Origin: a virus
Strand: one strand, 5' to 3'
IMG/VR virus record: IMGVR_UViG_3300045988_092126
Length of the DNA stretch: 64,000 nucleotides
In this document: positions 2,334-38,193 of the stretch, in pieces
How positions within the stretch are numbered: the first letter of the stretch is position 1
Layout of the letters: every line of letters begins with the position of its first letter
Made by a program: the position numbers and the translations under genes
Notes under the pieces: model-generated
Database searches by the model: none
What the model saw: the letters and a program-made list of their open reading frames with translations, nothing else
What the model was told of the DNA's origin: nothing

Positions 2334-2355
2334 TCCACATTTTGTGGAGCAGCGG

Positions 2356-2415: not shown

Positions 2416-2418
2416 TCA

Positions 2419-2897: not shown

Positions 2898-2899
2898 TT

Positions 2900-2971: not shown

Positions 2972-2974
2972 TTC

Positions 2975-3045
2975 GTGGAATGTACGCTAGTGGCAAACTG
3001 ACAGAGTCGCGCTCTGGTCTCCGGTTCGATTCCGGACGTTCCACT
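2975..3045 (+). pseudogene. Degenerate tRNA-like element (no canonical D arm or anticodon loop)
   Basis: Good acceptor (GTGGAAT/GTTCCAC) and T arm (TCCGG-TTCGATT-CCGGA). There is one extra nt before the 3' acceptor strand, the D stem is unpaired, and the middle folds as CAGAG-TCGCG-CTCTG, or as a 4 bp stem with loop GTCGCGC. Confidence 0.4.
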
Positions 3046-3104
3046 TTAATCCGCTTAGAATTATGCTATTTGTACACAGGCGGTCTATGGCTCAGGTGGA
3101 TTAT

Positions 3105-3176
3105 TGAAGTATAGCTCAGTGGTAGAGCAGTGGTCTCCAAAATCACGTGCCGAGGGTTCGATTCCTTCTGCTTCAG
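3105..3176 (+). tRNA. tRNA-Trp (anticodon CCA)
   Basis: Clean cloverleaf: TGAAGTA/TGCTTCA, GCTC-AGTGGTA-GAGC, GTGGT-CTCCAAA-ATCAC, GAGGG-TTCGATT-CCTTC, discriminator G. Confidence 0.85.
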
Positions 3177-3208
3177 TTCCGATGAATTGCAATCATTGGA
3201 ATTTTTTT
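3177..3208 (+). terminator. Intrinsic terminator closing the tRNA cluster
   Basis: TTCCGATGA-attgcaa-TCATTGGAA (9 bp, one G-U) followed by TTTTTTT. Confidence 0.7.
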
Positions 3209-12538: not shown

Positions 12539-13576
12539 ATGCCATTTAATATTTTAGAATCAATCACACCGGAAGAAAGACTTAACTTTTCTCAGGATTT
12601 CAGCGTAAAAAGGCCGGGCATTCTTGACACCATCTTCCCGGATGTCAAAACACAGTTTCTGAAAGCTGAATACTACAGACTTATGGCTGGACAGAGACTT
12701 CCAGAGGTAGCATTCGTTCATGCACTTGATACTGAAGCAGAAATCGGAACAAGACCGGGCTTCGAAAAAGTCCTGACTGAAAAGCTCTTTATTAAGAGAA
12801 AAATCAATCAGTCTGAGAGATTACAGCAGGCAATTGAAAATGGTGTGCCGGATGATGAGAATTTAAAGAAATTTGTATTTGATGATGCAGCTAATCTGTT
12901 TGAAGGAGTTGTTGCTAGAGCAAATGTCATGAAAGGCCAATTTCTTAGCACAGGTGTTGTAAAAATTAAAGAAAACAATGTGGATATGAGCATTGATTAT
13001 GGCGTTCCGTCCGATGCAAAAGTAGAAATGACAGACTGGTCTAAACCAGATGCAGATATCATGGGTGATATCCAGAAGATGGTCGCTATTGCAGAAGATA
13101 ATGGATTTGTGGTAAACAAAGCCCTTACCTCTCTCAAAATGATTAACTATATGAGAAATAACACTGCAATGCAGACCGCAGTTTTAGGAGCAGCTAACAA
13201 ACGTCTTCTGACCAAACAGGAACTCGCTAATCTGCTTATGCAGGAATACGGAATCACAATTGATCGCTGCGACGAGAAATTCAAATTCAGAAAAGCGGAT
13301 GGTTCTCTCAAAACAGGAAGATACTTCAAAGAAGATGTATTCACACTGTATGAAGCAGAGCCAAACGGTTCATTTGGTACTGGACTCTGGGGCGTAACAC
13401 GAGAGGAACTTGAATACAGACAGTTTATACAAGAAGAGAACCGTTCTTTCGTAACACTGTCTATGTGGGCCACTCCAGACCCTGTGGCAGTATGGACAAA
13501 AGCATCCGGTATGTTTGTTCCAGTAGCAGCAAAAGCTAATGGCGGTATCGTAATCGGTACCAAAGCGGGGGAATAA
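12539..13576 (+). CDS. Major capsid protein
   Basis: 345 aa. Position and size fit, and the sequence has a major capsid protein E-like character. Confidence 0.8.
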   Translation: MPFNILESITPEERLNFSQDFSVKRPGILDTIFPDVKTQFLKAEYYRLMAGQRLPEVAFVHALDTEAEIGTRPGFEKVLTEKLFIKRKINQSERLQQAIENGVPDDENLKKFVFDDAANLFEGVVARANVMKGQFLSTGVVKIKENNVDMSIDYGVPSDAKVEMTDWSKPDADIMGDIQKMVAIAEDNGFVVNKALTSLKMINYMRNNTAMQTAVLGAANKRLLTKQELANLLMQEYGITIDRCDEKFKFRKADGSLKTGRYFKEDVFTLYEAEPNGSFGTGLWGVTREELEYRQFIQEENRSFVTLSMWATPDPVAVWTKASGMFVPVAAKANGGIVIGTKAGE

Positions 13577-14213: not shown

Positions 14214-14525
14214 ATGGGATGTGAACATGAATGTTTTAATGAACACCGCATAGAAGAATTAGAGAATAGTCTTCGACAGATGCAAGAGAGACAATCCGAC
14301 CGCCATAAAGAGTTTTATGAGCGTATCGGGGAACTGGAAAGAAAGACAGCATTAAGTGAGAATGACTTGAACCATATCAAGTCAACTGTGGATGAGATGA
14401 ATAACAATATAAAGACTCTCATGGCAGTTCCAGGAAAGCGCTATGATACAATTATTGTATGTGTTATTACGGCAATTGTCGGCGCGGTTATCGGATTTAT
14501 GTTAAACGGCATTCTTCCAGTTTGA
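14214..14525 (+). CDS. XhlA-like protein (coiled coil + C-terminal TM)
   Basis: 103 aa. N-terminal coiled coil and C-terminal IIVCVITAIVGAVIGFMLNGIL. The call rests on architecture only. Confidence 0.45.
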   Translation: MGCEHECFNEHRIEELENSLRQMQERQSDRHKEFYERIGELERKTALSENDLNHIKSTVDEMNNNIKTLMAVPGKRYDTIIVCVITAIVGAVIGFMLNGILPV

Positions 14526-14554
14526 TTCCACTTGTAAGGGAGGACGGTGGAAAT

Positions 14555-14809
14555 ATGAATTATACAGACTTTTCAGAAGATGAAAGAAAATTTTACTTAA
14601 AAGAAGCAGGATTCGATTCCAGAGAAGAAAAACTGTTTCGTTTACGGGTTTATGGCGAGAAAACACTATGGGAAGCAGCTGAACTTATGGGGTATAGTCC
14701 AAGAACCATAGACCGAATTAATAAAAGAATAAAGAAGAAAATTTCTAAAGTTGCCCCGATGTACTGTCGGGGCTTTTCTTTGTATTGTGGCGAAAACGTG
14801 GCGAAATAG
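14555..14809 (+). CDS. Small sigma-70 region 4-like HTH protein
   Basis: Internal ATG with a GGAGG RBS. ...EKTLWEAAELMGYSPRTIDRINKRIKKKI. Confidence 0.55.
   Translation: MNYTDFSEDERKFYLKEAGFDSREEKLFRLRVYGEKTLWEAAELMGYSPRTIDRINKRIKKKISKVAPMYCRGFSLYCGENVAK
14753..14781 (+). terminator. Intrinsic terminator lying inside the last 19 codons of the preceding ORF
   Basis: GCCCCGA-tgtactg-TCGGGGC followed by TTTTCTTT. Confidence 0.65.
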
Positions 14810-14964
14810 TGACGTTCAAAAACAGAGTTCCTTCCTATATAATATAATCATAGGAGAAAACACAATGATTATGTTAAGAAACCCTTACGAGGGTATATGG
14901 GAAAAGCATCGTTCTATAGATGATATGGATATGATTCTTGAATCCCGGACAGGAGGAACAGATT

Positions 14965-15462
14965 ATGGCAGGTTATCCGTATTATCCGCAACAACCAATA
15001 ATAAACAATCCATACGGACAGATACAGCCGTATCAGGACAGGCTGGCGCAATTGCAGAATAATTACCAACAGGCAATGCCTTATGGTCAAATACAGATGC
15101 AACAGTTACAGCCGGTTCCACAATCACCTATGCTTCAAGGACAGATGGTGGATGGGATTGATACTGTAAAGGCTAAAGATGTGGATATGTCCGGCAATCC
15201 TGTTTACTATCCAAAAACAGACGGAACTGAAATTTACAGAAAACAGCTTCAATCCGATGGAAGGAGCAGAATTTTTGTTTACCGACTCGTAAATCCAGAT
15301 GAACAGCAATCTAAGCAAGATGAAAAGCAGATTGATATTGAAGCAATGTTTAATCAGCTTCGGAATGATGTTTGTTCGGAGATTTCTGAAATAAAGAATA
15401 TGTTTCCGACGCAGATGTCGGGGACATCGGAACCTAAGCAGAATGGAGGTAGGCAGAGATGA
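14965..15462 (+). CDS. Q/P/Y-rich low-complexity protein with a globular C-terminal domain
   Basis: AGGAGG RBS. MAGYPYYPQQPIINNPYGQIQPYQ...MQQLQPVPQSPMLQGQ, then VDGIDTVKAKDVDMSGNPVYYPKTDGTEIYRK. Confidence 0.65.
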   Translation: MAGYPYYPQQPIINNPYGQIQPYQDRLAQLQNNYQQAMPYGQIQMQQLQPVPQSPMLQGQMVDGIDTVKAKDVDMSGNPVYYPKTDGTEIYRKQLQSDGRSRIFVYRLVNPDEQQSKQDEKQIDIEAMFNQLRNDVCSEISEIKNMFPTQMSGTSEPKQNGGRQR

Positions 15463-15704
15463 CATTCAATCCAAACGCCATGATGAAAAAGCAATTTGAG
15501 AAAATGATCTCTCAGAGGTTCGGAAGTGTTGACAACATGATGAACGATATGAGCAAATTTGCAGGTAACAATCCAACATTGAAAAATGCTTTGGATTTAT
15601 ATAAAAAAGGTGATACAGACCAGTTACATCAAATACAGCAAAATGTATTTAATGAAAAGCACTTATCTCCAGATGGAATTATACAAAAATTCCTTGGATT
15701 ATAA
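15459..15704 (+). CDS. Hypothetical protein
   Basis: 81 aa with an ATGA overlap to the upstream gene. Confidence 0.55.
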   Translation: MTFNPNAMMKKQFEKMISQRFGSVDNMMNDMSKFAGNNPTLKNALDLYKKGDTDQLHQIQQNVFNEKHLSPDGIIQKFLGL

Positions 15705-15800
15705 CACTTCCCCACAATTGGGTGATTAAAAATCGCTACAATTCGGGACGACAGCCGCGGATGTCTCCTATTGTAAATAAAATTTAAGGAGACTAAAAAC

Positions 15801-16610
15801 ATGATGAATGGTTCAAATTATAGTCTTAGCGACATTGCTGCCGCTACAGGCTCTAATAATCGCGCCAATGATATGTGGGGCGGTGATGGCTTTTCACTTA
15901 TCTGGCTCGTCCTGATCTTCGCAATCTTCGGCTGGGGAGGTTTTGGCGGCTGGGGCGGCGGCTTTGGCGGTAACGGTGGAAACGGTGCGAACGGTGCCGG
16001 TTTCCAAGGATGGGCTACCCGTTCAGATATTAATGAGGAATTCGCCCTTAATGATATTCAGAATGGTATCAGAGGTATTCAGCAGGGTATCTGCGACAGC
16101 ACGTATTCTCTTAACAATACCATGCAGAGTGGCTTTAATGGTATGAATGTCGGAATGCTTCAAGGCTTCAACGGCGTTCAGCAGGCAATCAATGCTGATA
16201 CTGTAGCCGGTATGCAGAATACCAACGCATTACAGTCTCAGTTAGCAAACTGTTGCTGTGAAACAAGAGAAGCTATACAGGGTATCAACTACAACCTTGC
16301 TACCAACACTTGTGCTCTCCAGAACACAATGAACAACAACACCAGAGATCTTCTGGAAAACCAGAACAGCAACACAAGAGCAATCCTTGACTTCCTGACT
16401 AACGATAAGATTGCAACATTACAGGCAGAAAATACTGATCTGAAACGTGCTGCGTCTCAGGATCGTCAGTCTGCACTGCTTACAACTGCTATGGCTTCAC
16501 AGACTCAGCAGTTAATCAATGCAATTAATCCGGCGGCTATTCCGGCATATGTTGTTCCGAATCCGAATACCTATTACGGTGGATGCGGATGTAACAGCGG
16601 ATGCTGCTAA
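15801..16610 (+). CDS. TM + Gly/Trp-rich + Asn/Gln-rich protein with a Cys-rich tail
   Basis: FSLIWLVLIFAIFGWGGFGGWGGGFGGNGGNGANGAG..., an internal CCCE motif and a C-terminal YYGGCGCNSGCC. The RBS GGAGAC can pair with an upstream GTCTCC (15763-68). Confidence 0.7.
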   Translation: MMNGSNYSLSDIAAATGSNNRANDMWGGDGFSLIWLVLIFAIFGWGGFGGWGGGFGGNGGNGANGAGFQGWATRSDINEEFALNDIQNGIRGIQQGICDSTYSLNNTMQSGFNGMNVGMLQGFNGVQQAINADTVAGMQNTNALQSQLANCCCETREAIQGINYNLATNTCALQNTMNNNTRDLLENQNSNTRAILDFLTNDKIATLQAENTDLKRAASQDRQSALLTTAMASQTQQLINAINPAAIPAYVVPNPNTYYGGCGCNSGCC

Positions 16611-16640
16611 GTAACTCACCCTTAGAGGTTGACTAATTCT

Positions 16641-16672
16641 AAGAGGTGGGTTGCGGCTCACCTCTTATTTTG
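16641..16672 (+). terminator. Intrinsic terminator
   Basis: AAGAGGTG-ggttgcggct-CACCTCTT followed by ATTTT. Confidence 0.7.
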
Positions 16673-16688
16673 ATTGAGAGGTAAAGAT

Positions 16689-17114
16689 ATGAGTTGTAAA
16701 AATGTTTGTAAGCTCTGCAACCATCTTGTAATCAGCCAAGCCGTTGCGTTTACAGGAGGCAATCTTGTAATCACACTTCCGGCAGGCAGTTACAACAATG
16801 GAGAGAAATATTGTATTGTTGTTGCGCAAAGCATACCGGAAGCCACTACAATTACTGCTCCGGTAATGATTCAGATAGGAACAGGAACAACTTTGTATCC
16901 GCTAGAGAATCGTTGCTGCGCACAGGTTACGGCTTGCGGAATAAGAACCAGAACAAAGTACGCAACCAGAGTAGCTACAAGTGCAACCGGCGGAGTATTC
17001 AAGATGTTAGGAAATCCGGCTTGTAGTCCAAGTAACAATTTAACAGCAATTGATGGTACAGCCCCAACGACAGACACACCTGTTACACAGGCTGCCAGAA
17101 AGGGGGCAATGTAA
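16689..17114 (+). CDS. Cys-containing hypothetical protein
   Basis: MSCKNVCKLCNHLVISQAV...RCCAQVTACG. Internal ATG of ORF 16674..17114 with a GAGAGG RBS. Confidence 0.6.
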   Translation: MSCKNVCKLCNHLVISQAVAFTGGNLVITLPAGSYNNGEKYCIVVAQSIPEATTITAPVMIQIGTGTTLYPLENRCCAQVTACGIRTRTKYATRVATSATGGVFKMLGNPACSPSNNLTAIDGTAPTTDTPVTQAARKGAM

Positions 17115-17740
17115 TGCATAAAGTTGCAATGGAAATGGGAAAATGGGCTATGGAAAAAGCCAAAGCACATGGATTTGACAATCTTAGTTCTCAGGACTGG
17201 GATGATCTGAAAGATTGCTTAGAAGCGGTAAAATGCGCAATCTGTGCAGATAAAGATTACAGAATCGTAGAAGCTATGGACGAATGTGAACAGGAAGAGA
17301 AGTATCTTGGACGCATGGGATATGACAACTATCGTTACGCAAACGGCAGATTTGCACCAAAAGGCAGAGGAAGCCGAATGGGATATATGCCGTATCTCCA
17401 TATGCAGGATGACGACTGGGTAAGTGAATATCCGAGCAATCCAGAGTTTGAACGTAATATGTACCGCATGGGCTATCATCCAGACCGTAGTGATATGAGA
17501 ATGGACGGTATGAACAATAGGCAATCCAGATATGGTGAAACCTACGACAGATACAGCGAGAATCGCAGACATTACCATGATTCCAAAGATGCTGAATCTA
17601 AGAGAAAAATGGACGATTCCATGAAAGAGTATACAGAAGATATCATCCGCAATATGAAAGAAATGTGGGATGATGCAGACGCATCAATCAGACAGCAGAT
17701 GAAAACTGACTTAACACGTTTCATACAGCAGATGAATTGA
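17114..17740 (+). CDS. Charged protein with R-M-G-Y repeats
   Basis: 208 aa with RMGY occurring 3 times and D/E/R/K/Y/M-rich composition. Confidence 0.6.
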   Translation: MHKVAMEMGKWAMEKAKAHGFDNLSSQDWDDLKDCLEAVKCAICADKDYRIVEAMDECEQEEKYLGRMGYDNYRYANGRFAPKGRGSRMGYMPYLHMQDDDWVSEYPSNPEFERNMYRMGYHPDRSDMRMDGMNNRQSRYGETYDRYSENRRHYHDSKDAESKRKMDDSMKEYTEDIIRNMKEMWDDADASIRQQMKTDLTRFIQQMN

Positions 17741-17756
17741 ATATGAAATGAATTTT

Positions 17757-17789
17757 GCCCTTGTTACAGGAATGTAGCAGGGGCTTTTT
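17757..17789 (+). terminator. Intrinsic terminator
   Basis: GCCCTTG...CAGGGGC followed by TTTTT. Confidence 0.6.
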
Positions 17790-17815
17790 AGTTGAGAAAA
17801 GGATGGTGATAAGCC

Positions 17816-18202
17816 ATGCTAAGACAATTTTACATGAACGGCGACCTATGGAGGGTGCAGTTTGTATCTCCGCATGACAGCGTGTTAATTGACCGTACAG
17901 GCAATAGAACACTTGGAGTATCGGATTATTCCACACATATTATTTCAATCGCAAATAACCTGTATGGAGAACTTCTGAACCGTGTATTTATTCATGAGCT
18001 AGGGCATTGCGTGATGTTCAGTTATGGTCTATTGCCAGAACTTCATCGTATGGTCAAGAAACGGTATTGGGTGGATGCAGAGGAATTTGTATGCAATATT
18101 CTGGCAGACTATGGACAGTTTGTTATTGGCACAGCCAGAGATATTTTAGGAAACCAGTTCACATATGTAGCTCCCATTGGGGCAGAAAGGATGATTGCAT
18201 AG
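17816..18202 (+). CDS. Small HExxH zinc metallopeptidase (ImmA/SprT/DUF955-like)
   Basis: The motif FIHELGHCVM in a 128 aa protein. Confidence 0.6.
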   Translation: MLRQFYMNGDLWRVQFVSPHDSVLIDRTGNRTLGVSDYSTHIISIANNLYGELLNRVFIHELGHCVMFSYGLLPELHRMVKKRYWVDAEEFVCNILADYGQFVIGTARDILGNQFTYVAPIGAERMIA

Positions 18203-18445
18203 ATGGCAAAAGCAGAAAACACAATTATTTTTGATGGCATTCAGTACAATCCCGGTGATGAATTGCCGGATTTAGGCAGTTGGGTATGTACAGATGCAAG
18301 AGGTATGGTTCGTGATTACGAGGGACTTTCAAAAGACGTGTCAAAGCTCCCGCATTATGTACAGAGTGGTTCTTCGGCGTTGTGCCTTGATACTTCTGAA
18401 TTATACGAATATCACAAACCTACTGATACATGGTACAAACTGTAA
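18203..18445 (+). CDS. Hypothetical protein
   Basis: 80 aa, immediately upstream of the tail fibre gene. Confidence 0.55.
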   Translation: MAKAENTIIFDGIQYNPGDELPDLGSWVCTDARGMVRDYEGLSKDVSKLPHYVQSGSSALCLDTSELYEYHKPTDTWYKL

Positions 18446-18458
18446 AGGAGAAGCGCAT

Positions 18459-20702
18459 ATGGCATTAACAGCAAAGAAAGTATATGCAATATTAAAACGC
18501 CAGATTTCCGATATGGAAGCAAAATTAAATAGCCCTGTAAGATACAGAGGTACAGTTGCGACTGCTGATTTGCTTCCATTAAATCCAGACATTGGCGATA
18601 TGTACAATATCGAGTCTAAATCTATTTACGGCGAAGCAGGAATGAATGTGGCATGGAACGGCGTAGTATGGGACACTATGGGCGCCCCGATTGATATGTC
18701 ACTTTACATTAAATCAAACGAATTAGCGGATTGGGTAAAACAGCAGAACAAGCCGACATATACAGCTGAAGAAGTTGGAGCGTTGCCGGCTGATACAAAG
18801 ATTCCAAGCAAAACCAGTGAATTGCAGAATGACTCTGGATTCTTGACTAAAATTCCAGACAATTATCTTTTCGAAACAGACAAAACACTGAACGTATCTG
18901 GAAAAGCTGCTGACGCAAAGGCTACCGGAGATAAAATCACAGAATTGTCAGCTGATATATCAAATAAATTGAATAAGAACCAAGGTTCGGAAAACTCTGG
19001 CAAGATTGCCGGAATTAACGAATCTGGCGATATCGTTCCGATGTTTCCAGTAAGCGTAGATTACAACGAAGAAACAAACTGCCTTGAGTTTGGGTCTGAT
19101 CAAAAAATGGAGCTTAATAAAGGTATCAACCTTGATAGCACTCTCACGAAGACTGGATATGCCGCTGATGCAGGCGCAGTTGGAGAAATAACTAATTCAC
19201 TAAAGGAAGATTTGTATGTTAAAACTTACAACATTTTTGATGTTAATTTTTTACCTCGAGCATTCATTCCTCTCACAGGCTCTCACGGCGGTGAACTGTT
19301 TCTTGATAATAATGATAATTATTCGGCAACAAATGAAACTATTAATGTTCTTCCGAATACTCAATACACCTTTTCAAATGGTAGTGAATCTATCCCTTAT
19401 GAGTTACAGTTAAGTGTTATTTTTTATGACAAAGATATGAGGTTCTTAGGTTATGCAAGTAACACCATTAATAATTTTTCAAAATTTTTTAAATTTACAA
19501 CTATTGAAAACACTAATCATCTAAGATTTCAACTTCGTTCCACAGGAAAAGGCTCGGATATTCCTAATATAAAAAAATGGCAGTTAAACGAGGGTAATCT
19601 ATTACCTTATTTGGATAATTATGTGTTAAATTGTTCAACGGATAATATTGGAAATGAATTAACCGATATAAACATTGATAATCCACAGGTCAGAGATTTT
19701 GTTGAAGATGTTGATTACACAAATCAAGAATACACAATAACACAAGTTGGTACATATTCTGCACCATCTGTTTATTATAGAAAAGATTGTGGTTTTCCAA
19801 TGGTTGTTAAATGGAAATTAAATAGAGATATAAAAAATCAAATATTATATATTTCTACAAACAAATTAATTCCTATTGCTGATACAGTTGCTGTGAAATC
19901 ATATGATATTCCTTGTGGAATAAGTGATTTTGCTGTATATAATTTAATCCCAAATGCAACATATTACTATAAAGTTTGTGGTACTGATTTTGACAACAAT
20001 TTAATTGTAATTAAAGAAGGGTGTTTTACCACTATTGGACAAGTGCATATGTTAAAAATTGACGGATTAAAAAATGTTCGTGATTTAGGTGGTTGGCTTA
20101 CGCCAAATGGTAAAATTAAATACGGATTATTATTTAGAGGTTGCGAACTTGATGATACCGGAGTCGGTGTGGAATTAACACATGAAGGTAAAAAAGAACT
20201 TTTTGATAGAATAAGAATAAAAACTGACATTGATTTAAGAACGGATGTTGGTAATACAAAATCGCCTATCGGTACTCTTGTTGATTATAATTGTTATCCT
20301 ATTCAACCATATGATACAGGTTTGAAAGACACTATAACAAAAGGATTAATAAAATCTATTTTTGAAAAAATTGAAGAAAAGTTATCAAAAAGTAATGCGA
20401 TATATTTCCATTGCCAAGGTGGTAGAGATAGAACTGGAACACTTGCTTTTTTGATTCTAGGTGTTTTAGGTGTGAGCGAATCCGATATAGCAAAAGATTA
20501 TGAACTTACAGAATTTGCGTATGCAAGTTATAAGGCTGATAATCCGAATACGTCTAGGAAGTTTGCTCAATATGTATCTATGGTAAGTTATATTAAAACT
20601 TTCAATGGGGCAACATTTAATGATAAGATTATTAGTTATCTTTTGAGCATCGGAATTAGTCAAGCCACTATTAACAATATTAAGTCGTATATGGTTGCTT
20701 AA
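18459..20702 (+). CDS. Tail fibre-like protein with a C-terminal protein-tyrosine-phosphatase-like domain
   Basis: Internal ATG with a GGAG RBS. The N-terminus (YRGTVATADLLP..GDMYNI..AWNGVVWDTMG) and the G-x-AADA-x-x-x-G repeats are typical of fibres. The C-terminus has NVRDLGGW...IDLR...HCQGGRDRTG, a CX5R signature at 20409-20438. Confidence 0.7.
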   Translation: MALTAKKVYAILKRQISDMEAKLNSPVRYRGTVATADLLPLNPDIGDMYNIESKSIYGEAGMNVAWNGVVWDTMGAPIDMSLYIKSNELADWVKQQNKPTYTAEEVGALPADTKIPSKTSELQNDSGFLTKIPDNYLFETDKTLNVSGKAADAKATGDKITELSADISNKLNKNQGSENSGKIAGINESGDIVPMFPVSVDYNEETNCLEFGSDQKMELNKGINLDSTLTKTGYAADAGAVGEITNSLKEDLYVKTYNIFDVNFLPRAFIPLTGSHGGELFLDNNDNYSATNETINVLPNTQYTFSNGSESIPYELQLSVIFYDKDMRFLGYASNTINNFSKFFKFTTIENTNHLRFQLRSTGKGSDIPNIKKWQLNEGNLLPYLDNYVLNCSTDNIGNELTDINIDNPQVRDFVEDVDYTNQEYTITQVGTYSAPSVYYRKDCGFPMVVKWKLNRDIKNQILYISTNKLIPIADTVAVKSYDIPCGISDFAVYNLIPNATYYYKVCGTDFDNNLIVIKEGCFTTIGQVHMLKIDGLKNVRDLGGWLTPNGKIKYGLLFRGCELDDTGVGVELTHEGKKELFDRIRIKTDIDLRTDVGNTKSPIGTLVDYNCYPIQPYDTGLKDTITKGLIKSIFEKIEEKLSKSNAIYFHCQGGRDRTGTLAFLILGVLGVSESDIAKDYELTEFAYASYKADNPNTSRKFAQYVSMVSYIKTFNGATFNDKIISYLLSIGISQATINNIKSYMVA

Positions 20703-20797
20703 CTAAAGAGGGCTTTAGTTAACTATTAAAACCACAGGCACAGCGCATTTAATCATTATAAACAGTTGACAATAAATAACAGATATGGAGGAATCAC

Positions 20798-22000
20798 ATG
20801 AAAACGCAGAAAACAAAAGGATTTTATGACCGTGAAAATGATACGGTACATATTTTTATTCCGCCTGCTCCGACAGAATCGGAGAGAGGTGGAATTACTG
20901 CAAAAGAAAAAACAACGGAATCCCTCGAAGTTACTATTGATTCAGCTACGGGGAAAGCATATGTAGCACTCGACAAAACACTTTCAAAGACAGGCGAGGC
21001 GGCGGATGCAGCAGTTGTAGGCGAAAAACTCACATCAATGGGTGTCGCAATTGAAAATGTAAAGGAAGATAAAGCCGATAAAACATCTCTTGCACAAACC
21101 GACAGAAAGCTTGATGCACTCTGGAAACTCAATCAGGGTATCAGCTATGAATTTCAGACAGATGAAGCAGAAGCATATCAGAAAACGGTTCCGAGTGGTG
21201 CAAAGATGGTAAGCATTAAAAGTATTGGCGGTAAGACGATTGTCTGGAATCAGTTAAATTTGAATAACGAAAATTCTGTTACGAAAAACGGTATTTCTTT
21301 TATAAACAATAAGGACGGTTCGTGGACAATAACTGGAACTTGTAGTACATCTAATGGCGGCAGTGCTGACGTACTAATATACGGATTTGCAGTTAAATAT
21401 GTATCAGGTCATAAATATTTAGTTAAAGCCGATAAATATTCTGATGGAAATTATGGTTTTGCAATTAACGGCAGGTCTTACCCACTAAAAAAAGCAATAA
21501 TTATTAATTACGCTTTTAATCCAGTAATATTTGTAAACGACAAGGCAACCGTGGATAACGTTACGATGCGAATGAATATTTTCGACCTCACCCAAATGTT
21601 CGGCGCAGGTAACGAACCATCCACCCCAGAGGAATTCGAAGCTATGTTTCCAGCAGACTATTATCCGTACAATGCAGGCGAGTTGATGAGCGCACCTGTG
21701 AATGAAGTTGTATATTTAGATACCAAAAATCAAGAAACATCATATCCAATCCCACAAGCCATTCTTGACCTAGAGGGTTATGGAGAGAGTGGGAATTTTG
21801 TTGATTTTGTGGAAAAGAAATACCACAAAGGGGACAGGACGATTGATATATCAGACATTATGGGAGATACATTCCAACAACCTCTTGAAGTTGAAGTAGG
21901 CGGTACACTGACGTTCAAAAACAGCAACGGTAATGATTACAGAATCCCTGTACCAAGCTCAGAGGAATATGTAATATCTTTAGCGGAGGTAGCAAAATGA
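20798..22000 (+). CDS. Tail fibre / receptor-binding protein
   Basis: 400 aa. It shares the LDKTLSKTGEAADAAVVGEKL motif with the preceding gene. Confidence 0.6.
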   Translation: MKTQKTKGFYDRENDTVHIFIPPAPTESERGGITAKEKTTESLEVTIDSATGKAYVALDKTLSKTGEAADAAVVGEKLTSMGVAIENVKEDKADKTSLAQTDRKLDALWKLNQGISYEFQTDEAEAYQKTVPSGAKMVSIKSIGGKTIVWNQLNLNNENSVTKNGISFINNKDGSWTITGTCSTSNGGSADVLIYGFAVKYVSGHKYLVKADKYSDGNYGFAINGRSYPLKKAIIINYAFNPVIFVNDKATVDNVTMRMNIFDLTQMFGAGNEPSTPEEFEAMFPADYYPYNAGELMSAPVNEVVYLDTKNQETSYPIPQAILDLEGYGESGNFVDFVEKKYHKGDRTIDISDIMGDTFQQPLEVEVGGTLTFKNSNGNDYRIPVPSSEEYVISLAEVAK

Positions 22001-22149
22001 CTGAAATGCAGAAGAAAATGATAGAGAAACTTGGTCTGGCTGAATCAGACTTTGAGAAAAAAGAAACGGTGGTAAGCAATGAAGAACGTATCAATGACCT
22101 TGAGATTGCTGTCTGCGAACTGCTTGAAACACTTGGGAATGCTGAATAA
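21997..22149 (+). CDS. Small protein (50 aa) distal to the tail fibres
   Basis: Read by eye, with an ATGA overlap. MTEMQKKMIEKLGLAESDFEKKE...INDLEIAVCELLETLGNAE. Confidence 0.45.
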   Translation: MTEMQKKMIEKLGLAESDFEKKETVVSNEERINDLEIAVCELLETLGNAE

Positions 22150-22165
22150 GAAAAGGAGAAATAAA

Positions 22166-22342
22166 ATGATGGCAAAAGTATATTTTAACAGATTGATCGT
22201 AGGAACTATTACATATGATGCAATTCCTGAGAAATATCAGGATAAAGTAAGAGAATATGGTATTGAGTATGTGAAAAAAGGAAAACTTCCTGTAGAAGAA
22301 TATGAAATGCTGTATAAAGAGGAATATCCAGAGGGTAAGTAA
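22166..22342 (+). CDS. XkdX-like small protein
   Basis: AAGGAGA RBS. ...YVKKGKLPVEEYEMLYKEEYPEG resembles the XkdX pattern VxxGxITxExYxxI. Confidence 0.45.
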   Translation: MMAKVYFNRLIVGTITYDAIPEKYQDKVREYGIEYVKKGKLPVEEYEMLYKEEYPEGK

Positions 22343-22437
22343 TTAACACCAGTTTAAAAAATTGAACAAACAGGAGAAAATCAAAATGGAATTTAATATC
22401 AAGACCAGGCTTGCTCATGCTTGGAGGGCGTTAATTA

Positions 22438-22466
22438 TTGACTATTGGACACCAATAATATATAAT
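22438..22466 (+). promoter_or_regulatory. Sigma-70-type promoter
   Basis: TTGACT, a 17 nt spacer, then TATAAT. Confidence 0.6.
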
Positions 22467-22483
22467 GATTATAAATTCATTAT

Positions 22484-22675
22484 ATGGAGGTGAGTTCGAT
22501 AAAAGTAGAAAGAAATATCATGATTAACAAAGCTGGTGGAAACGCAGGAAAAGAATCTGTCAACTATAAAATATCACTTCCGTCAGAAGCAGTTCGGATG
22601 ATAGGTGTTACCAAAGAAGACAGAAAAGTAATTCTCGAATATGATGAAGAGAAAATAACAATCAAAAAAGCATAA
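22484..22675 (+). CDS. AbrB/SpoVT-like small DNA-binding protein (start uncertain, 22484 or 22520)
   Basis: YKISLPSEAVRMIGVTKEDRKVILEYDEEKITIKK. Confidence 0.45.
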   Translation: MEVSSIKVERNIMINKAGGNAGKESVNYKISLPSEAVRMIGVTKEDRKVILEYDEEKITIKKA

Positions 22676-22681
22676 TAAAAA

Positions 22682-22773
22682 GGAGTTAGGTTCCCGACTA
22701 CCAATCAAAAAAAACCTAACTCCAACACCACAAAGGGTACAGTATTATTATAACATGGTACTCTCCCTTTGTG
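22682..22773. repeat. Two inverted repeats upstream of the recombinase gene (attP or operator candidates)
   Basis: GGAGTTAGGTT(22682-92)/AACCTAACTCC(22713-23) and CACAAAGGG(22729-37)/CCCTTTGTG(22765-73). Confidence 0.5.
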
Positions 22774-22796
22774 AACCCAAAAGGAGGGTATTTTTT

Positions 22797-23792
22797 ATGA
22801 GAGATAAATTCGTGAATGGGTTCATGACAAAACTGTATGGAGAAATTCCGGAAGAGTATCTGGAAACGATCAGAAACAAACTGGCGTTGTATGTAAATGA
22901 TTTTGATATCAGTCAAAGAGAAACAGCAGTTGTAAAGTATACTGGATATTTGCCGGATTTTTACAAAACTTACATTGTAAGTAGAAAAATCGAGGGTTTG
23001 AGTAAAAAGACGCTCGAACTCTACAATCTTTATCTGAATGATTTCTTTTTCACATTCAATAAAAAAGCTGAAGATATTACCTCAAATGACATTCGTGTAT
23101 ATCTGTATAATGCTCAGGAAAGCAGAAGTCTAAGTAATCGAACACTTGATAGCCGCAGAACTGCCATTCATGCATTTTTCGAATGGGCTGCAAACGAGGG
23201 ATATGTGGGCAAAAACCCATGCAGATCAATCAAAAATATCAAATATGAGCGTATAGAAAAACAACCTCTGACAGATATGGAACTGGAAAGAATCAGGCAA
23301 GCTTGCGAAACCGTACGTGAAAAAGCACTGGTTGAATTTCTGTATAGTACCGGAGCCAGGGTTACAGAAGTGTGTGGTGTAAAGAAAACAGATATAGACA
23401 TTTACAAAGGTGAAGTAGTTGTTTTGGGGAAAGGCAACAAGCATAGAACAACATACCTAAACGCTCGTTGTAAATTACTTTTAAAACAATACTTTGCAAT
23501 TAGAGATGATGAATCGGAATATCTTTTTGTAAGTGAAAGGAAACCACATAAGGTACTCAAAAAAGAAGCAATTGAAAGAATTGTACGAATAATCGGTGAA
23601 CGGGCAGAACTGGACAGACCTCTAACACCGCATCTATTTAGGCATACTCTTGCGACTCTTATGCTTCAAAGAGGTACGCCGATTACTGAGGTGCAGAAGA
23701 TTCTTGGACATGTCAACATTAACACGACAATGATCTATGCAAAGGTATCTGATGAAGATGTAAAAGTGTCTCATATGAAATATGCAATATAA
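22797..23792 (+). CDS. int: Tyrosine recombinase / integrase (XerC/D-like)
   Basis: Contains TGARVTEV, GKGNKHR, HLFRHTLAT and GHVNINTTMIYAKV, which supply the R..K..HxxR..H..Y catalytic set. Confidence 0.85.
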   Translation: MRDKFVNGFMTKLYGEIPEEYLETIRNKLALYVNDFDISQRETAVVKYTGYLPDFYKTYIVSRKIEGLSKKTLELYNLYLNDFFFTFNKKAEDITSNDIRVYLYNAQESRSLSNRTLDSRRTAIHAFFEWAANEGYVGKNPCRSIKNIKYERIEKQPLTDMELERIRQACETVREKALVEFLYSTGARVTEVCGVKKTDIDIYKGEVVVLGKGNKHRTTYLNARCKLLLKQYFAIRDDESEYLFVSERKPHKVLKKEAIERIVRIIGERAELDRPLTPHLFRHTLATLMLQRGTPITEVQKILGHVNINTTMIYAKVSDEDVKVSHMKYAI

Positions 23793-33118: not shown

Positions 33119-33180
33119 CAACCAGAGTGCATGGGTGCCACAGCTCATGTGCTCTTTATTTTATATATGGGAGGACAGAT

Positions 33181-36100
33181 ATGGCAACATACACGTTTGA
33201 ATCATTACTAAATAAAGCGGATGGGATGACTAAAGTCAATGAATATGTTGTGCAGGAAAAGACTTTGGAAATAGAAGGAGCGTCTTGGTATCATTACGCC
33301 GGAAATGCTGTGAATAAACTTTATATAAACGGTAAAGGATATATTGGATTCGGGGCAGATGTGGAACACTTAAAGATGTTCTGGGCTAAAGCGGCGAACA
33401 ACATAAATGACGTATATAGGCAAGAAGGAGTTCTTGACACAGGAGCTAAATTCCTGAAATTGAAGTTAAAAGGAATATATAATCATTATTATGACAAATA
33501 CGCATATGAATACGAAGTTTTTCTATTTGATGACGGGAATATATTTGTATATATAATTAAAAGTGCGAAGAATGAATACAATACGCTATTTGGAGATTGT
33601 GAAGTCACAAATGGAAAGACCACAGATATTGTGTTAGCAGAATACCATAGCGATTTTAAAAAATATCCTATCAGTAGACTTATTAGCAATGCTGGAATAA
33701 AGCCAAAAGTAATCCGCTCGAAATACACACCGATAAAAGAAGCAGGGGTAAGAATTAAGACAAACCCTGCAGCAGTATACGTCCCAAACGCATTAGATTG
33801 GTCGGAATTGTCGGTAGAATCCTATGACTCATCAGGAAACACGAATGCAGTAAGTAATTTTACATTTCCCGATGTTGATGTATCTACAGTTGGAACAAAA
33901 ACTGTAAAATTATCATATAAAACTTATAGCGTGCCTGTTGAAATCACTGTAAAAGAGGATACAGTCTTAGAACTTACAAAGTTCAATCTTCGCGATCATT
34001 ATCTTCTAAATGAAACACTAGAGATATATTCCGTAACGGCAGTATGGGATAGTGGAAAGAATGAAACATTGACTTCTGGATTTGATGTTTCTGGATTTGA
34101 CAGCGCTACTCCCGGCACAAAGGAACTGACGATTTCATATAAAGGAGCAGCCACAACAAAAAGTATATATGTCGCAGCTACCGCTGCGTTAACCATTGAT
34201 GGTGCCAAGACCGAATACTATATAGGTGATGATTTTGAAAGTGCTAACGGCATTATTACATACGATGATGGAGAAGAAGAGAGTGTTTATGAATTAATAT
34301 ATTCTGGATTTGATAACACGATTGCCGGAGAACAGGTTATCACAGCGACTGTAAGAGGATTAAGCACCACATACACAGTACACGTATCCGATACGGTTAC
34401 TGCAAATATTGGGGCAAATGTAGAAACAGATGCCATAGCTTCGCTTAACCTGATTACTGGTCTATTAACGGTTTCGGGAACGGGCGATACAAAAGATATA
34501 GACACCCCAAGTTATTTTGGCGGTGGAATTTTTGACGGAAAAGGAGATCACTCTAGTCAAGTCAAAAAAATCGTAGTCCAAGAAGGTATTACTGGATTAA
34601 TTGGAGCTTGCTTTTATGGCATGTCAAATGTTACAGAAGTGTCACTTCCATCTACATTAAAGACAATAGGGCAAAGCTGCTTTTCCGGTTGCTCACTAAT
34701 TACAACATTATTACTTCCAGAGGGACTGGAAACATTGCAAGATGGATGCTTCTATAACTGTAGCGGATTGACAGAATTAACATTGCCATCGTCATTGAAA
34801 GAAATAACAGGAACCATAATCGACAATAAAAACGCAGTATTAACCATTCTGAGCAGAACTGTTCTGATTGGCGAATACTCGATTTATGTAAAGACAATTC
34901 GCGGATATATTGGTTCAACAGCAGAGACTTATGCAAATAGCAACAATATCCCATTTGAAGCAATTAATAATATTTTAAAGATTGAAATAGTCAACTATCC
35001 ATCAAAAACTTATCATGTCGGAGAAACGATCTCCAAAGCAGATTTAACTGTACAGATGACCCTTGAAGATGGAACTGTACAGGAAACAGATTTATATGAA
35101 TTAAGCTATGATTTCAGTTCGACCGGGACAAAAACTGTAACGGTATTTATAGGAGATAAAAGTGATACGTTCAACGTTGATGTAACAACGTATAAACTTT
35201 CTGAGGTCGTTAATACTTTAACCGGGATGCAACTAATAGAGAATTCCGGACGGGATGAAGGAACAGACATACTGGATGGCGTTAGCTGGTTTAGATTCAA
35301 CAATGTAATCACAGATAAACTCTATGTTAATGGAAACAACTGGATTGGATTTGGGGTATCTTCAGAGCAATTGAAAATTTGTAACCGCGATGGAGCTACG
35401 CATAATATTTACAGGATGGAAACTGAATTAGACGGAGGTATAAAACTTCTTAAAATCCGAGTAGAAGGATATACATATTTTGCAGCCTCTGAAGCGCACG
35501 AAAGTCAGATAAAATATGAATTATTCTTATTTGACAATGGTGATATGTACCTGAACGTAATTCAGTCTCCTATAGATACAAGCATCTATGCCGGAATATC
35601 CAGCTTGACTAGCAATGGCAAGACTACAAATTTGTCCTTGAATGGAGCTACGCCGGAAAGCCCAGTACAGGTGTCATTCATACACCAGGACGAATCTGGA
35701 CTTGATTGGAATATTTCTTATAGGCCATATAGTCTTGCAACACTTGTCGGAATCAAAGTAGCACAGTTGCCCGATAAAACTAGGTATATGGTTAATGAAA
35801 CGTTTAAGTCTTCTGGGCTTATCGTTAATGTTGTCTATGATGATGGTAGCTCAGGAGTAATCAAAAAATATGCCTTGTCATCCCCAGATATGACATCGTA
35901 CGGTAGCAAAAGTATAACGGTGACATTTGAGAGTTTCACGACCACATTCGACATTATGGTTGTAGATGTAACTGGAATTGAAATAACAAGTCTACCAACA
36001 AAAACGCGATATTACGAAGATGACGAATTTTTAGCCAGTGGAATAATTGTGTCTCAGGTATATACGGATGGGATTAAAGAAGAAATTACGGGCTATTCTC

Positions 36101-38193
36101 TTTCGAGCCCAGATATGTCATCTGGTGGAGAGAAGACAATAACAGTAACTTACAATAAGTTTACGACAACATTTACAATCTCGGTAATTGGTATATCTGG
36201 GATAGAAGTCTCCAAAATGCCAACAAAGACAGAATATTACACAGGTGACAGTCTCGATACGTCCGGTCTCGAAGTAATATCCAAATATACAGATGGAGCA
36301 TCGAGGAAGTTGACAGATTATAGCGTATCAAAACTTGATAGTTCTTCTGCTGGCGAGAAAGAAATTTCCGTAACGTATAAAAATCATACATCCACATTCA
36401 AAGTGACTGTGTATGAACTAAAAGGAATCCGAATTTCACATTATCCAAACAAGATTTATTATAAAATCGGAGAAACGTTCGACCCATCAGGGTTAACTGT
36501 TGTGGAAGTAAGGCAGGACGGAACCGAGAAAGAAATTACAGATTATGATATTTCAGGCTTCGATAGTTTCACCGCAGGTTCTAAGACCATCACAGTTTCT
36601 TATAATGTCACAGACAACGGAGCTTCCAAATTTGTTGGTTCTGACAGTTTTCAAATCAAAGTCACAAACGACGGGAAAAACCCATTTGATGATAGTTCAA
36701 GTGGCGGTTCTGGCGGCGGCTCTGGCGAAGTTGAAGAAGAAAAAACTGAACCAATCAATGTTACAGTACACTGGATTAATGGCGAATTTGCTGACCTTAC
36801 AAATGAAAATATCGACCAGAATACGCTTACTTTGCAGGAGTCTATTTGCTCTGAACAGTATTTCATTTTTGGCGGTTGTGTCTGCAATCAGATAACGTTT
36901 CAGGCTCACCACGACCAGTTTAACGGTACCTCGGAAGAGTTTTATCCCTCTGGCAAAATCGAAGTTTACATCGAGAGAAAAGGAACAAAAATTAAAATTT
37001 TCACAGGTGAAATCGACAGTGCAGAGCGAAAAGCAAACTCCCTGACACGTAATTTTATCGCGTATGATTATCTGTATAAATTACGAAATACTGACATTGC
37101 TCGATGGTATAAAAACCAGACGACTGATAAGAAGAAAAAGCTGACTCAAAAGCAATTTAGAGATAAATTATTTGAGTTTTTGGGACTCGAACAAGTTAGT
37201 ACAAAACTGCATTGGGACGACACTTATGTGCCCGATACGAATAACTCAAATGAGATGAACGTAGTGAATATTCTGAAAGATTTATGCTTGCAAAATGACC
37301 GCTTTGGATGGATGAATAGGGATGGTAAATTTGAGTATTTGAAGCTTCGCCAGAACAGCTATAAATACGGGCAGACCACCGGTAATCAGAACATTTATAA
37401 ATACTACAACAATGAGGAAGTGCATCTTGATACATTCAAAAGTTTTACCGCAAAAGAGGGTAGAATTTGGTTCCCGAATGTTATATTTTGTGACCCCGAC
37501 CCGAATAGAGCCTTTGGATTTATACAAGGTGACTACACAGCGCAGGAAGCATATGATAACAATGTTTATTACAACAGAAATAGTTTCTTTGTCGGGAATG
37601 AAGATTGGCTGAATTACGTTTGGGATGCCAACGAATACGGCGGTATTTCAAGAGCTGAGCCGATTATGAAAATTTGCTATGGCGTGTTCGTAAATCAAGA
37701 TTTGCGGAAATATTATCGTGCGCAGGGATATACCGCCGAGGTTCAGGGAAACCCACTGAACATGGTTGGACAGGCAGTCGAACTTTACTATAAAAAGCAG
37801 ATTCAGCACGACGATCAGGAGCCTACAGAACTGCAATGGTACGTCCATTCATACATCATGAGCAGGACGCTCAAAATCGGCGCTACAGACATGATTGACA
37901 CCTATTCTGCCAACAATGCACCGTTTAATAGTAATAGTCAGCAGTTAGGAAAATACACTCCTGAGATATCCGCAACCGTAAACCGCACCCGATCAGAAAT
38001 GCCAGTAGTGAGCTATGGATTCTCAGACGGTACGAGCGATTTTACCCCGGCTGCTGTTTCTACTTCTGGAGGCACTATAAAAAAGACGGCATTACGTTGC
38101 ATGAAGCGCATCAAAAAAGACGATTACGATAACCTTCCCGCAGCAGCTCGTACTAGGGGCGATACTATTTTCATGACATATAAGGAGAACTAA
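33181..38193 (+). CDS. Tail tip / tail-associated (Tal-like) protein with Ig-like and BspA-type LRR insertions
   Basis: Internal ATG with a GGGAGG RBS, giving 1670 aa. There are at least 9 G(T/S/E)Kx(I/V)TV(T/S)Y-type Ig-like modules and an LRR block (LPSTLKTIGQSCFSGCSLITTLLLPEGLETLQDGCFYNCSGLTELTLPSSLKEI). The C-terminal half has siphovirus tail-endopeptidase-like character. Confidence 0.7.
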   Translation: MATYTFESLLNKADGMTKVNEYVVQEKTLEIEGASWYHYAGNAVNKLYINGKGYIGFGADVEHLKMFWAKAANNINDVYRQEGVLDTGAKFLKLKLKGIYNHYYDKYAYEYEVFLFDDGNIFVYIIKSAKNEYNTLFGDCEVTNGKTTDIVLAEYHSDFKKYPISRLISNAGIKPKVIRSKYTPIKEAGVRIKTNPAAVYVPNALDWSELSVESYDSSGNTNAVSNFTFPDVDVSTVGTKTVKLSYKTYSVPVEITVKEDTVLELTKFNLRDHYLLNETLEIYSVTAVWDSGKNETLTSGFDVSGFDSATPGTKELTISYKGAATTKSIYVAATAALTIDGAKTEYYIGDDFESANGIITYDDGEEESVYELIYSGFDNTIAGEQVITATVRGLSTTYTVHVSDTVTANIGANVETDAIASLNLITGLLTVSGTGDTKDIDTPSYFGGGIFDGKGDHSSQVKKIVVQEGITGLIGACFYGMSNVTEVSLPSTLKTIGQSCFSGCSLITTLLLPEGLETLQDGCFYNCSGLTELTLPSSLKEITGTIIDNKNAVLTILSRTVLIGEYSIYVKTIRGYIGSTAETYANSNNIPFEAINNILKIEIVNYPSKTYHVGETISKADLTVQMTLEDGTVQETDLYELSYDFSSTGTKTVTVFIGDKSDTFNVDVTTYKLSEVVNTLTGMQLIENSGRDEGTDILDGVSWFRFNNVITDKLYVNGNNWIGFGVSSEQLKICNRDGATHNIYRMETELDGGIKLLKIRVEGYTYFAASEAHESQIKYELFLFDNGDMYLNVIQSPIDTSIYAGISSLTSNGKTTNLSLNGATPESPVQVSFIHQDESGLDWNISYRPYSLATLVGIKVAQLPDKTRYMVNETFKSSGLIVNVVYDDGSSGVIKKYALSSPDMTSYGSKSITVTFESFTTTFDIMVVDVTGIEITSLPTKTRYYEDDEFLASGIIVSQVYTDGIKEEITGYSLSSPDMSSGGEKTITVTYNKFTTTFTISVIGISGIEVSKMPTKTEYYTGDSLDTSGLEVISKYTDGASRKLTDYSVSKLDSSSAGEKEISVTYKNHTSTFKVTVYELKGIRISHYPNKIYYKIGETFDPSGLTVVEVRQDGTEKEITDYDISGFDSFTAGSKTITVSYNVTDNGASKFVGSDSFQIKVTNDGKNPFDDSSSGGSGGGSGEVEEEKTEPINVTVHWINGEFADLTNENIDQNTLTLQESICSEQYFIFGGCVCNQITFQAHHDQFNGTSEEFYPSGKIEVYIERKGTKIKIFTGEIDSAERKANSLTRNFIAYDYLYKLRNTDIARWYKNQTTDKKKKLTQKQFRDKLFEFLGLEQVSTKLHWDDTYVPDTNNSNEMNVVNILKDLCLQNDRFGWMNRDGKFEYLKLRQNSYKYGQTTGNQNIYKYYNNEEVHLDTFKSFTAKEGRIWFPNVIFCDPDPNRAFGFIQGDYTAQEAYDNNVYYNRNSFFVGNEDWLNYVWDANEYGGISRAEPIMKICYGVFVNQDLRKYYRAQGYTAEVQGNPLNMVGQAVELYYKKQIQHDDQEPTELQWYVHSYIMSRTLKIGATDMIDTYSANNAPFNSNSQQLGKYTPEISATVNRTRSEMPVVSYGFSDGTSDFTPAAVSTSGGTIKKTALRCMKRIKKDDYDNLPAAARTRGDTIFMTYKEN

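Follow-up and report, generated by a model that had tools for sequence, protein, structure and literature searches.

The window analyzed here is the whole 64,000-nucleotide stretch of DNA from the IMG/VR virus record IMGVR_UViG_3300045988_092126. It encodes P0001, a protein of 747 amino acids (18459..20702, + strand, stop codon included) that appears to be a modular virion fibre with a Cys-based phosphatase domain at its C-terminal end. The comparative evidence for a modular virion fibre is strong. Residues 1-83 of P0001 vary little or not at all among 19 proteins whose C-termini are unrelated, and they stay essentially invariant whether the sequence is exchanged beyond residue 88, 96, 130 or 250. 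The C-terminal domain is predicted to be a complete Cys-based phosphatase, which would be catalytically active. We give an even chance to the reading that P0001 is a virion-borne fibre enzyme acting on phosphorylated surface glycopolymers. A phosphatase on a swappable fibre tip suggests an unstudied phage route to bind or strip surface phosphate groups.

The call of a phosphatase domain is itself not new and is already in databases, since nr, JGI and UniProt automatically assign P0001 to the tyrosine phosphatase family. The initial annotation of this gene, made from the sequence, had named no known characterisation of the fusion, and a literature search likewise gave no paper on a protein tyrosine phosphatase (PTP)-fold domain on a phage fibre. 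The present analysis adds the precise point at which cargo is swapped, an 83-residue anchor that is invariant and bears at least 23 cargoes, a cassette that recurs nearly unchanged in unrelated phages, and a gene position that is unusual.

The phosphatase domain and its cassette

Residues 530-747 (20046..20699, +) were identified as a Cys-based phosphatase domain with both Pfam and Foldseek. The Pfam family PF13350 (Y_phosphatase3) matched residues 533-705 at 96.7 bits (E 2.7e-27), compared to a gathering cut-off of 22.2 bits. With a match of this strength, the phosphatase motif is confirmed not to be a chance occurrence and lies far beyond one. An AlphaFold2 (AF2) model of residues 255-747, built on 35 relatives and with a mean predicted local distance difference test score (pLDDT) of 85, contains a beta-sandwich and a disordered linker, followed by a fibronectin type III (FN3)-like domain and an alpha/beta domain. 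When the model was compared to the PDB using Foldseek, the best matches were the C. difficile PTP (8dhj and 8dhi) and M. tuberculosis PtpB (1ywf and 2oz5), with E values of ~4e-9. For 8dhj, 8dhi and 1ywf, the probability was 1.00 and the template modelling (TM) scores (target) were 0.58-0.61. Lower matches included fibronectin type III pairs, GH2 sandwiches, laforin (4rkk, E 1.7e-5), TpbA, Siw14 and DUSP15. The profile score, the C-X5-R P-loop and the PTP alpha/beta fold all place the domain in the PTP superfamily. Therefore, the earlier assignment of the last ~220 residues to the CX5R phosphatase fold is borne out by the domain search, the structure prediction and the structural comparison, which agree with one another.

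Among predicted viral structures in BFVD, the model matched best to a UniProt entry with 97% identity that already bears the name "Tyrosine phosphatase family protein [Siphoviridae sp.]". The FN3 and PTP pair is shared by two other phage proteins, with 22% identity (TM ~0.5-0.6, root-mean-square deviation (rmsd) 3.7-3.8 A). P0001 matched no fibre family of its own in Pfam, and its sole PHROG match was a family of unknown function. In NCBIfam, neither P0001 nor its nine neighbours had a match.

The P-loop, HCQGGRDRTG, occupies residues 651-660, exactly at nucleotides 20409..20438 (+), where the initial annotation had placed it. The NVRDLGG motif is found at residues 539-545 (20073..20093, +), within the NVRDLGGW quoted there (residues 539-546), and the quoted IDLR is at residues 591-594. 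Conservation in these columns was counted in 35 relatives with ~30% identity to P0001. In all 35, the P-loop residues H651, C652, G654, G655, D657, R658, T659 and G660 are invariant, as is the adjoining T661. The same is true for N539, V540, R541, D542, G544 and G545 of the first motif, and for E674, Y681, E682 and L683. The P-loop signature of the PF13350 family is HCXXGKDR[TA]G, in which the Asp is the acid/base catalyst and the Lys helps in substrate binding (PMC6409689). By analogy, we propose that Cys652 is the nucleophile, Arg658 the phosphate clamp and Asp657 the acid/base. No general acid outside the P-loop was identified in the alignment, where the candidate columns 609, 619 and 624 are not conserved. 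The in-loop Asp is therefore relied on as the acid/base, given the family description (PMC6409689) and given that the alignment offered no other residue. An atypical lipid phosphatase of the MptpB type was considered and rejected. Because Asp657 is kept but the signature Lys is replaced, we treat the domain as a complete Cys phosphatase rather than one of that type.

The ratio of non-synonymous to synonymous substitution rates (dN/dS) of the PTP domain was 0.10 compared to L005, for which dS is near saturation, and 0.18 compared to L006, both of them other phages with the cassette. These were the lowest values of the three cassette domains. Such comparisons show a phosphatase domain that is, by its codon changes, under purifying selection, with an active-site loop that is intact and conserved. 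The beta-sandwich is the most variable domain of the cassette, with 17 non-synonymous and 3 synonymous differences compared to L006, although these numbers are small.

The sandwich, at residues ~263-385 (19245..19613, +), is predicted to be a jelly-roll resembling carbohydrate-binding modules, with pLDDT mostly 85-94 in the AF2 model. On its own, it aligns over ~125 residues, with an rmsd of 3-4.4 A, to tail-fibre proteins of Lactobacillus phages Lb338-1 and SAC12B and Enterococcus phage EFP01 in BFVD. It also matches the N-terminal sandwiches of GH2 enzymes in the PDB. The FN3-like beta domain, at residues ~445-527 (...YNLIPNATYYYKV...; 19791..20039, +), was recognized from the strands of the model and from the Foldseek matches to fibronectin type III pairs. 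It ends at about residue 527 and has the typical NATYYYKV strand. In relatives, this domain is always coupled to the PTP domain, and most of the 150 best library hits span profile positions ~270-620, which take in both domains. Pfam fn3 itself was detected in a Bacteroidales relative.

Anchor, shaft and exchange of cargo

The N-terminal part of P0001 can be divided into an anchor and a shaft. The anchor, residues 1-88 (18459..18722, +), is presumed to be the virion-attachment module, since it is near-invariant in this phage lineage whatever follows it. It is 96-100% identical in proteins of 467-1054 amino acids with differing cargo, and 36-53% identical to short proteins of Enterocloster phages and MT835477. 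A search with residues 1-135 matched 1,847 protein clusters and 159 IMG/VR loci, almost all of them on phage contigs of 70-85 kb. The shaft, residues 89-262 (18723..19244, +), was delimited from the sequence and from the breakpoints in relatives. It contains KPTYTAEEVGALP and SELQNDSGFLT motifs and two units that end in GxAADAxxxG (18900-18929 and 19155-19184, +).

All of the motifs quoted in the initial annotation for this part of the protein are present as well. YRGTVATADLLP, GDMYNI and AWNGVVWDTMG fall within residues 29-75, GKAADAKATG is found at residues 148-157 and GYAADAGAVG at residues 233-242. A further copy, GEAADAAVVG, is found in the next gene (20798-22000).

The junction with the cargo lies directly after the second GxAADAxxVG motif (...VGEITNSLKED). 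It is found at residue 242 plus ~10 in 104 of the 105 anchor-bearing proteins compared, and nested breakpoints occur near residues 88/96, 130 and 250. Since the point of cargo exchange follows the second motif, the GxAADAxxVG motifs mark module junctions. The 105 proteins carry 23 unrelated cargo clusters. Cargoes on this anchor include SGNH/GDSL esterases, peptidase M14, BNR (sialidase-like) domains, a pectate-lyase-like beta-helix, DUF6273 and a calcineurin-like phosphoesterase. The last of these is carried by P0214, an 836-amino acid protein of another phage of the lineage, in which a calcineurin-like metallophosphoesterase, a second and unrelated phosphoesterase fold, is the cargo on the same anchor.

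A conserved N-terminal module with exchangeable C-terminal modules, as is found in fibres, is therefore present in P0001. The earlier description of its first ~250 residues as typical of a tail fibre holds in that the N-terminal 260 residues form an anchor and shaft with swappable cargo. A place on the tail in particular is not supported by the position of the gene, which lies between the head and tail modules and not in a tail/baseplate gene cluster. We call P0001 a virion fibre rather than a tail fibre since its gene is outside the tail-tip cluster and its anchor has no homologue of known location.

The phosphatase cassette also starts at the same type of junction behind four or more other N-termini, and it was found outside this lineage. 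In a 130-kb contig that is unrelated, a cassette with 94% identity lies amid fibre-like genes of 1,014-2,419 amino acids, one with a faint Peptidase_S74 match and one with DUF6273. In another phage, the cassette comes after a 2,873-amino acid protein. Fusions to Collagen repeats, Phage_fiber_rpt and Mtd_N were seen among more remote relatives of the PTP domain. These associations show that the cassette has a predicted fibre or receptor-binding context in other phages.

Diversity-generating retroelements in phages typically diversify receptor-binding proteins. Such an element is present in L004, a sister phage with M14 cargo, where the gene after the anchor fibre (587 amino acids) is followed by a gene for a reverse transcriptase (RVT_1; L004:14738-15913). 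A 102-nucleotide repeat pair is found at L004:14242-14343 and 14441-14542, made up of a variable repeat at the 3' end of the 587-amino acid gene and an intergenic template copy. Inside the repeat proper, which runs from about column 13 of the alignment and ends immediately 5' of the stop codon, every mismatch has an A in the template copy. A reverse transcriptase with an adenine-specific repeat pair matches the signature of a diversity-generating retroelement. The window does not encode a reverse transcriptase at the equivalent position.

Proposed action on the host surface

Relatives with the FN3 and PTP core are widespread in bacteria. In a search space of 1.84 billion 50%-identity clusters, the core was found in 12,678 representatives at E <= 1e-3 and in 2,913 at E <= 1e-30. 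It is present in 215 species-representative genomes, from gut and rumen Lachnospiraceae, Oscillospiraceae, other Clostridia, Coriobacteriaceae, Bacteroidales, Kiritimatiellae and Lentisphaerae. A signal peptide or lipoprotein signal is found at the start of most chromosomal copies: 50 of 92 complete open reading frames (ORFs) were flagged by a crude rule, and many more are evident by eye. Other chromosomal copies carry dockerin, DUF4988 or BACON domains. In one Bacteroidales locus (L046:5979-8756), two lipoproteins, one with BACON, FN3 and Y_phosphatase3 and the other with Y_phosphatase3, are encoded in tandem next to a melibiase-like gene, a PfkB sugar kinase, an aldose epimerase and a DeoR regulator. 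The Bacteroidales loci L045, L049, L053, L072 and L073 have tandem pairs of a similar kind. Pho16B, a secreted PF13350 enzyme from soil, is active and promiscuous (PMC6409689). Given the signal peptides, the dockerin, DUF4988 and BACON domains, the carbohydrate-gene neighbours and Pho16B, the FN3 and PTP clade works extracellularly, probably on carbohydrate-linked phosphate.

Compared to known systems, P0001 is closest to the PF13350 enzymes (8dhi/8dhj, PtpB and Pho16B). It resembles these in its profile, its best structural match and the NxRDxGG and HCxxGxDRTG motifs, including the in-loop Asp, and Pho16B is extracellular too. However, the identity is only ~20%, and these enzymes are free, single-domain proteins of ~240-350 amino acids, whereas the domain of P0001 forms the tip of a 747-amino acid fibre after an FN3-like domain. 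The exported BACON, DUF4988 and dockerin proteins of gut Bacteroidales and Clostridia share the FN3 and PTP core, with 30-40% identity and the same invariant residues. Unlike P0001, they are chromosomal, have signal peptides and lack a fibre anchor; no characterisation of them was found. Enzymatic phage receptor-binding proteins, such as depolymerases, SGNH esterases, sialidases and glycerophosphodiesterase tail proteins, have the same arrangement of conserved anchor and exchangeable enzymatic cargo. Sister proteins on the anchor of P0001 bear cargoes of this kind, and the cassette moves between unrelated phages. P0001 differs from these proteins in its Cys-based PTP-fold cargo and in having its gene outside the tail-tip cluster.

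The glucan phosphatases laforin and SEX4/LSF2 combine a carbohydrate-binding beta-sandwich with a Cys phosphatase that removes phosphomonoesters from polysaccharide. Their design is analogous to that of P0001, but they belong to another branch of the superfamily (dual-specificity, not PF13350), and the structural match to laforin ranked below the PF13350 structures. The DSPc profile scored 17.1 bits compared to a cut-off of 33.5, and the Pfam scan gave no CBM family, CBM20 and CBM48 included. This is an analogy of design and not family membership. The record of Enterococcus phage Efs 1-1-1 (OR846620.1, L176, UNVERIFIED_ORG) was rejected as a model for P0001, since it encodes a free 250-amino acid PF13350 phosphatase and not a fibre. 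The L176 phosphatase gene lies amid genes for signal-peptidase-like and membrane proteins, and the stretch looks like host rather than phage DNA.

In the mechanism that we propose, the anchor would fix the fibre to the particle, and the GxAADAxxVG motifs of the shaft (residues 89-262) would be recombination points for the exchange of cargo. Residues 263-747 would form a mobile cassette with a sugar-binding-type sandwich, an FN3-like spacer and a catalytically complete PF13350 Cys phosphatase. The sandwich would dock the fibre tip on a glycopolymer of the host surface, such as a capsule, a teichoic-acid-like polymer or another wall polysaccharide. The pocket (Cys652, Arg658 and Asp657) would bind and then hydrolyze a phosphomonoester on this glycopolymer. 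The receptor would be modified or destroyed as an outcome, as is expected for those cargoes of esterase, sialidase-like and lyase-like type that the same anchor carries. We infer the presence of P0001 in the virion, its site of attachment, its catalytic activity and the nature of its substrate. It is a tentative claim, which we put somewhat below an even chance, that an active Cys phosphatase at the fibre tip of a gut phage dephosphorylates a host surface glycopolymer during adsorption, and that this would be a new catalytic class of receptor-modifying phage enzyme and would define a glycan-phosphate substrate for the large clade of exported PF13350 enzymes in gut bacteria.

Fibre enzymes decide which bacteria a phage reaches and are sought as tools against capsules and biofilms. 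To our knowledge, all well-studied ones are glycosidases, lyases, esterases or phosphodiesterases. If a Cys phosphatase does act on a fibre, this would be new chemistry, and would point to the phosphate decorations on the surfaces of Gram-positive gut anaerobes as phage receptors or barriers. It would also open a first route to the function of the thousands of related phosphatases that gut and rumen bacteria export. One invariant anchor with at least 23 cargoes is a ready system in which to study the rewiring of host range by module exchange, and the lineage would be a natural set of near-isogenic phages distinguished only by their fibre cargo.

Several points weigh against the proposed action of P0001. 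Cys phosphatases are monoesterases, and the best-known wall phosphates of Gram-positive bacteria are diesters. The substrate-binding Lys of the family signature is an Arg in P0001 and a Cys in 26 of the 35 clade members; with the Lys of HCxxGKDR replaced, the substrate preference of characterised members cannot be transferred to P0001. The gene comes after the head genes and before the neck/tail genes rather than at the tail tip, so that the fibre could sit on the neck or head. A model of residues 1-262, including the anchor, had a mean pLDDT of 36.8 and was discarded, its low confidence being due to the available relatives, which are nearly identical in residues 1-83. Comparison of the anchor profile to solved structures gave only noise (E 0.49), and no homologue of known location was found, PHROG included. 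No species-representative genome carries P0001. The literature on the P0001 phage and close phages, the PMBT24 paper included, contains no virion proteomics or imaging.

The domain could instead bind phosphate and hardly turn it over, if at all. The pocket would then serve as a lectin that recognizes a phosphorylated glycan or teichoic acid, and P0001 would be a pure receptor-binding protein. This would suit a fibre tip, which is usually a binding module, and a cassette that also has a carbohydrate-binding-type sandwich; the replaced Lys and the alignment without a separate general acid outside the P-loop would fit as well. However, a binder would not need the Cys, and Cys652 is invariant in 35 of 35 relatives along with His651, Asp657, Arg658 and Thr659. 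The dN/dS ratio is also lowest in the PTP domain, and the sister cargoes on the same anchor are hydrolases. We consider binding alone to be unlikely, and the enzymatic reading of P0001 is kept.

An enzyme at the fibre tip could instead be a depolymerase that cleaves phosphodiester-linked chains of teichoic-acid-like polymers or phosphoglycans, and not terminal or side-chain phosphates. Glycerophosphodiesterase domains and the phi29 appendage enzyme are known on other Gram-positive phages and provide an analogy, and the host is probably Gram-positive. Other phosphoesterase folds also occur as cargo, as in P0214 (calcineurin-like), and BFVD gave glycerophosphodiester phosphodiesterase and calcineurin-like matches. 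Against this, the substrates of characterised Cys-based enzymes of the PTP fold are monoesters or anhydrides, and the reaction passes through a phospho-cysteine intermediate. PF13350 has no known diesterase, and the members discussed in PMC6409689 are monoesterases. Cleavage of the polymer backbone is thus improbable compared to the removal of phosphomonoesters by P0001.

Just as improbable is that P0001 acts outside the virion, as an accessory enzyme released at lysis or a product of lysogenic conversion that alters neighbour surfaces, matrix, or dietary or host phosphates. For example, it could destroy receptors and so spare progeny from loss on debris. In other phages, fibre enzymes are known to occur in a free form as well. 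The ~9.6-kb block that holds the gene interrupts the head-to-tail order and ends with an integrase, and the upstream genes of this block have no assigned structural function. P0001 has no signal peptide, however, and the block order is conserved without the integrase in MT835477. Its 83-residue N-terminus is invariant over hundreds of cargo variants, which is expected of docking onto a conserved partner on the particle. In addition, the cassette is found in tail-fibre clusters of other phages, and the retroelement of L004 targets the neighbouring gene. A place for P0001 on the particle fits these data better.

The initial annotation had also raised action on capsule synthesis controlled by host tyrosine kinases. 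This is unlikely because capsule tyrosine kinases are cytoplasmic, the domain would be at the external tip of the fibre and the bacterial relatives are exported. More broadly, dephosphorylation of Tyr or Ser/Thr on a host protein, inside the cell or at the surface, is in line with the family name, the database label of P0001 as a protein-tyrosine phosphatase and the triple specificity of PtpB given in papers cited by PMC6409689, but it is very improbable for a domain that forms the far end of a fibre, follows a sugar-binding-type sandwich and has as its relatives exported lipoproteins or secreted proteins, some in carbohydrate contexts, and nothing points to ejection of P0001 into the cell.

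Gene start, genome context and host

The P0001 gene lies in an ORF of 18294-20702, with the ATG at 18459 inside it. A ribosome-binding site, AAGGAG (18445..18450, +), was read in the sequence 8 nucleotides 5' of this ATG. Gene calls on dozens of public contigs of 72-80 kb give the identical 747-amino acid product. A 9-bp inverted repeat (TAACTAAAG...CTTTAGTTA) at nucleotides 20700-20722 overlaps the stop codon of the gene. With no T-run after it, this repeat may be a weak terminator at best.

The window is a phage genome, with a large terminase at 7019, a portal at 9286, a head-morphogenesis gene at 10752 and a major head protein at 12539-13576. Downstream, a Rha-type regulator is found at 24791, an r1t-type holin at 25939, a tape measure (1,658 amino acids) at 27708 and an NlpC/P60 endolysin-like protein at 39543. 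The best explanation is that the P0001 phage is a ~75-kb temperate, siphovirus-like phage of the human gut, and its lineage is abundant in human-gut metagenomes. The head-to-tail order is broken by a ~9.6-kb block (14214-23792) of small genes with no assigned function, fibre genes and a recombinase. The same block order, without the integrase, is found in MT835477 (L087), and the anchor gene comes after the tail and lysis genes in Enterocloster phages. Pfam and PHROG gave no function for the upstream genes of the block or for the neck-region genes. The recombinase is a tyrosine recombinase (integrase; 22755..23792, +) matching PHROG 1 (E 1.6e-60), and Pfam Phage_integrase was matched on sister contigs. 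An invertible segment or shufflon driven by this adjacent recombinase was considered and rejected, since the inverted repeats are short and at the level of chance.

The gene after P0001 (20798..22000, +) encodes 400 amino acids and has its own GGAGG site. By its sequence, it consists of a third shaft unit, marked by GEAADAAVVG, and a second cargo, with no anchor. Residues 56-400 of its product correspond to a cargo that is joined directly to the anchor in P0072 (62% overall, with the last 135 amino acids nearly identical), and 25 of the 105 proteins with the anchor are of the P0072 type. In L096, residues 5-81 have their counterpart (75% identity) within one ORF that also encodes the anchor. 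Since the cargo of the next gene is fused to the anchor in P0072 and its N-terminus is within an anchor ORF in L096, the phosphatase cassette seems to have entered between the anchor and a cargo that was there before it.

The host is probably an anaerobe of the Clostridia or Lachnospiraceae type. That it is Gram-positive is suggested by the r1t-type holin, by the NlpC/P60 endolysin-like protein and by a tail protein in which Big_3 domains are combined with BspA-type leucine-rich repeats. Among cultured relatives, only Enterocloster bolteae siphoviruses share the N-terminus of P0001. In 401 sampled Lachnospiraceae genomes, only distant relatives of the anchor were found, in 5 genomes and with a best identity of 42%. 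The tail protein (33127-38193) has 1,688 amino acids, with seven Big_3 Ig-like domains as well as the leucine-rich repeats, and is probably the main tail-tip adhesin.

Upstream of P0001, a gene at 15801-16610 encodes 269 amino acids with a Gly-rich N-terminal part and a Cys-rich C-terminus (PHROG 16490), and a gene at 16674-17114 encodes a Cys-rich protein of 146 amino acids. Both are conserved in the sister phages and in MT835477. The 128-amino acid product of 17816-18202 contains HELGH (HExxH) and has weak matches to PHROG 1233, a peptidase PHROG and DUF6782; it may be a small metallopeptidase. An 80-amino acid ORF (18203-18445) separates this gene from the fibre gene. Five tRNA genes, for Gln, Met, Tyr, Met and Trp, are found at 2170-3177 of the window.

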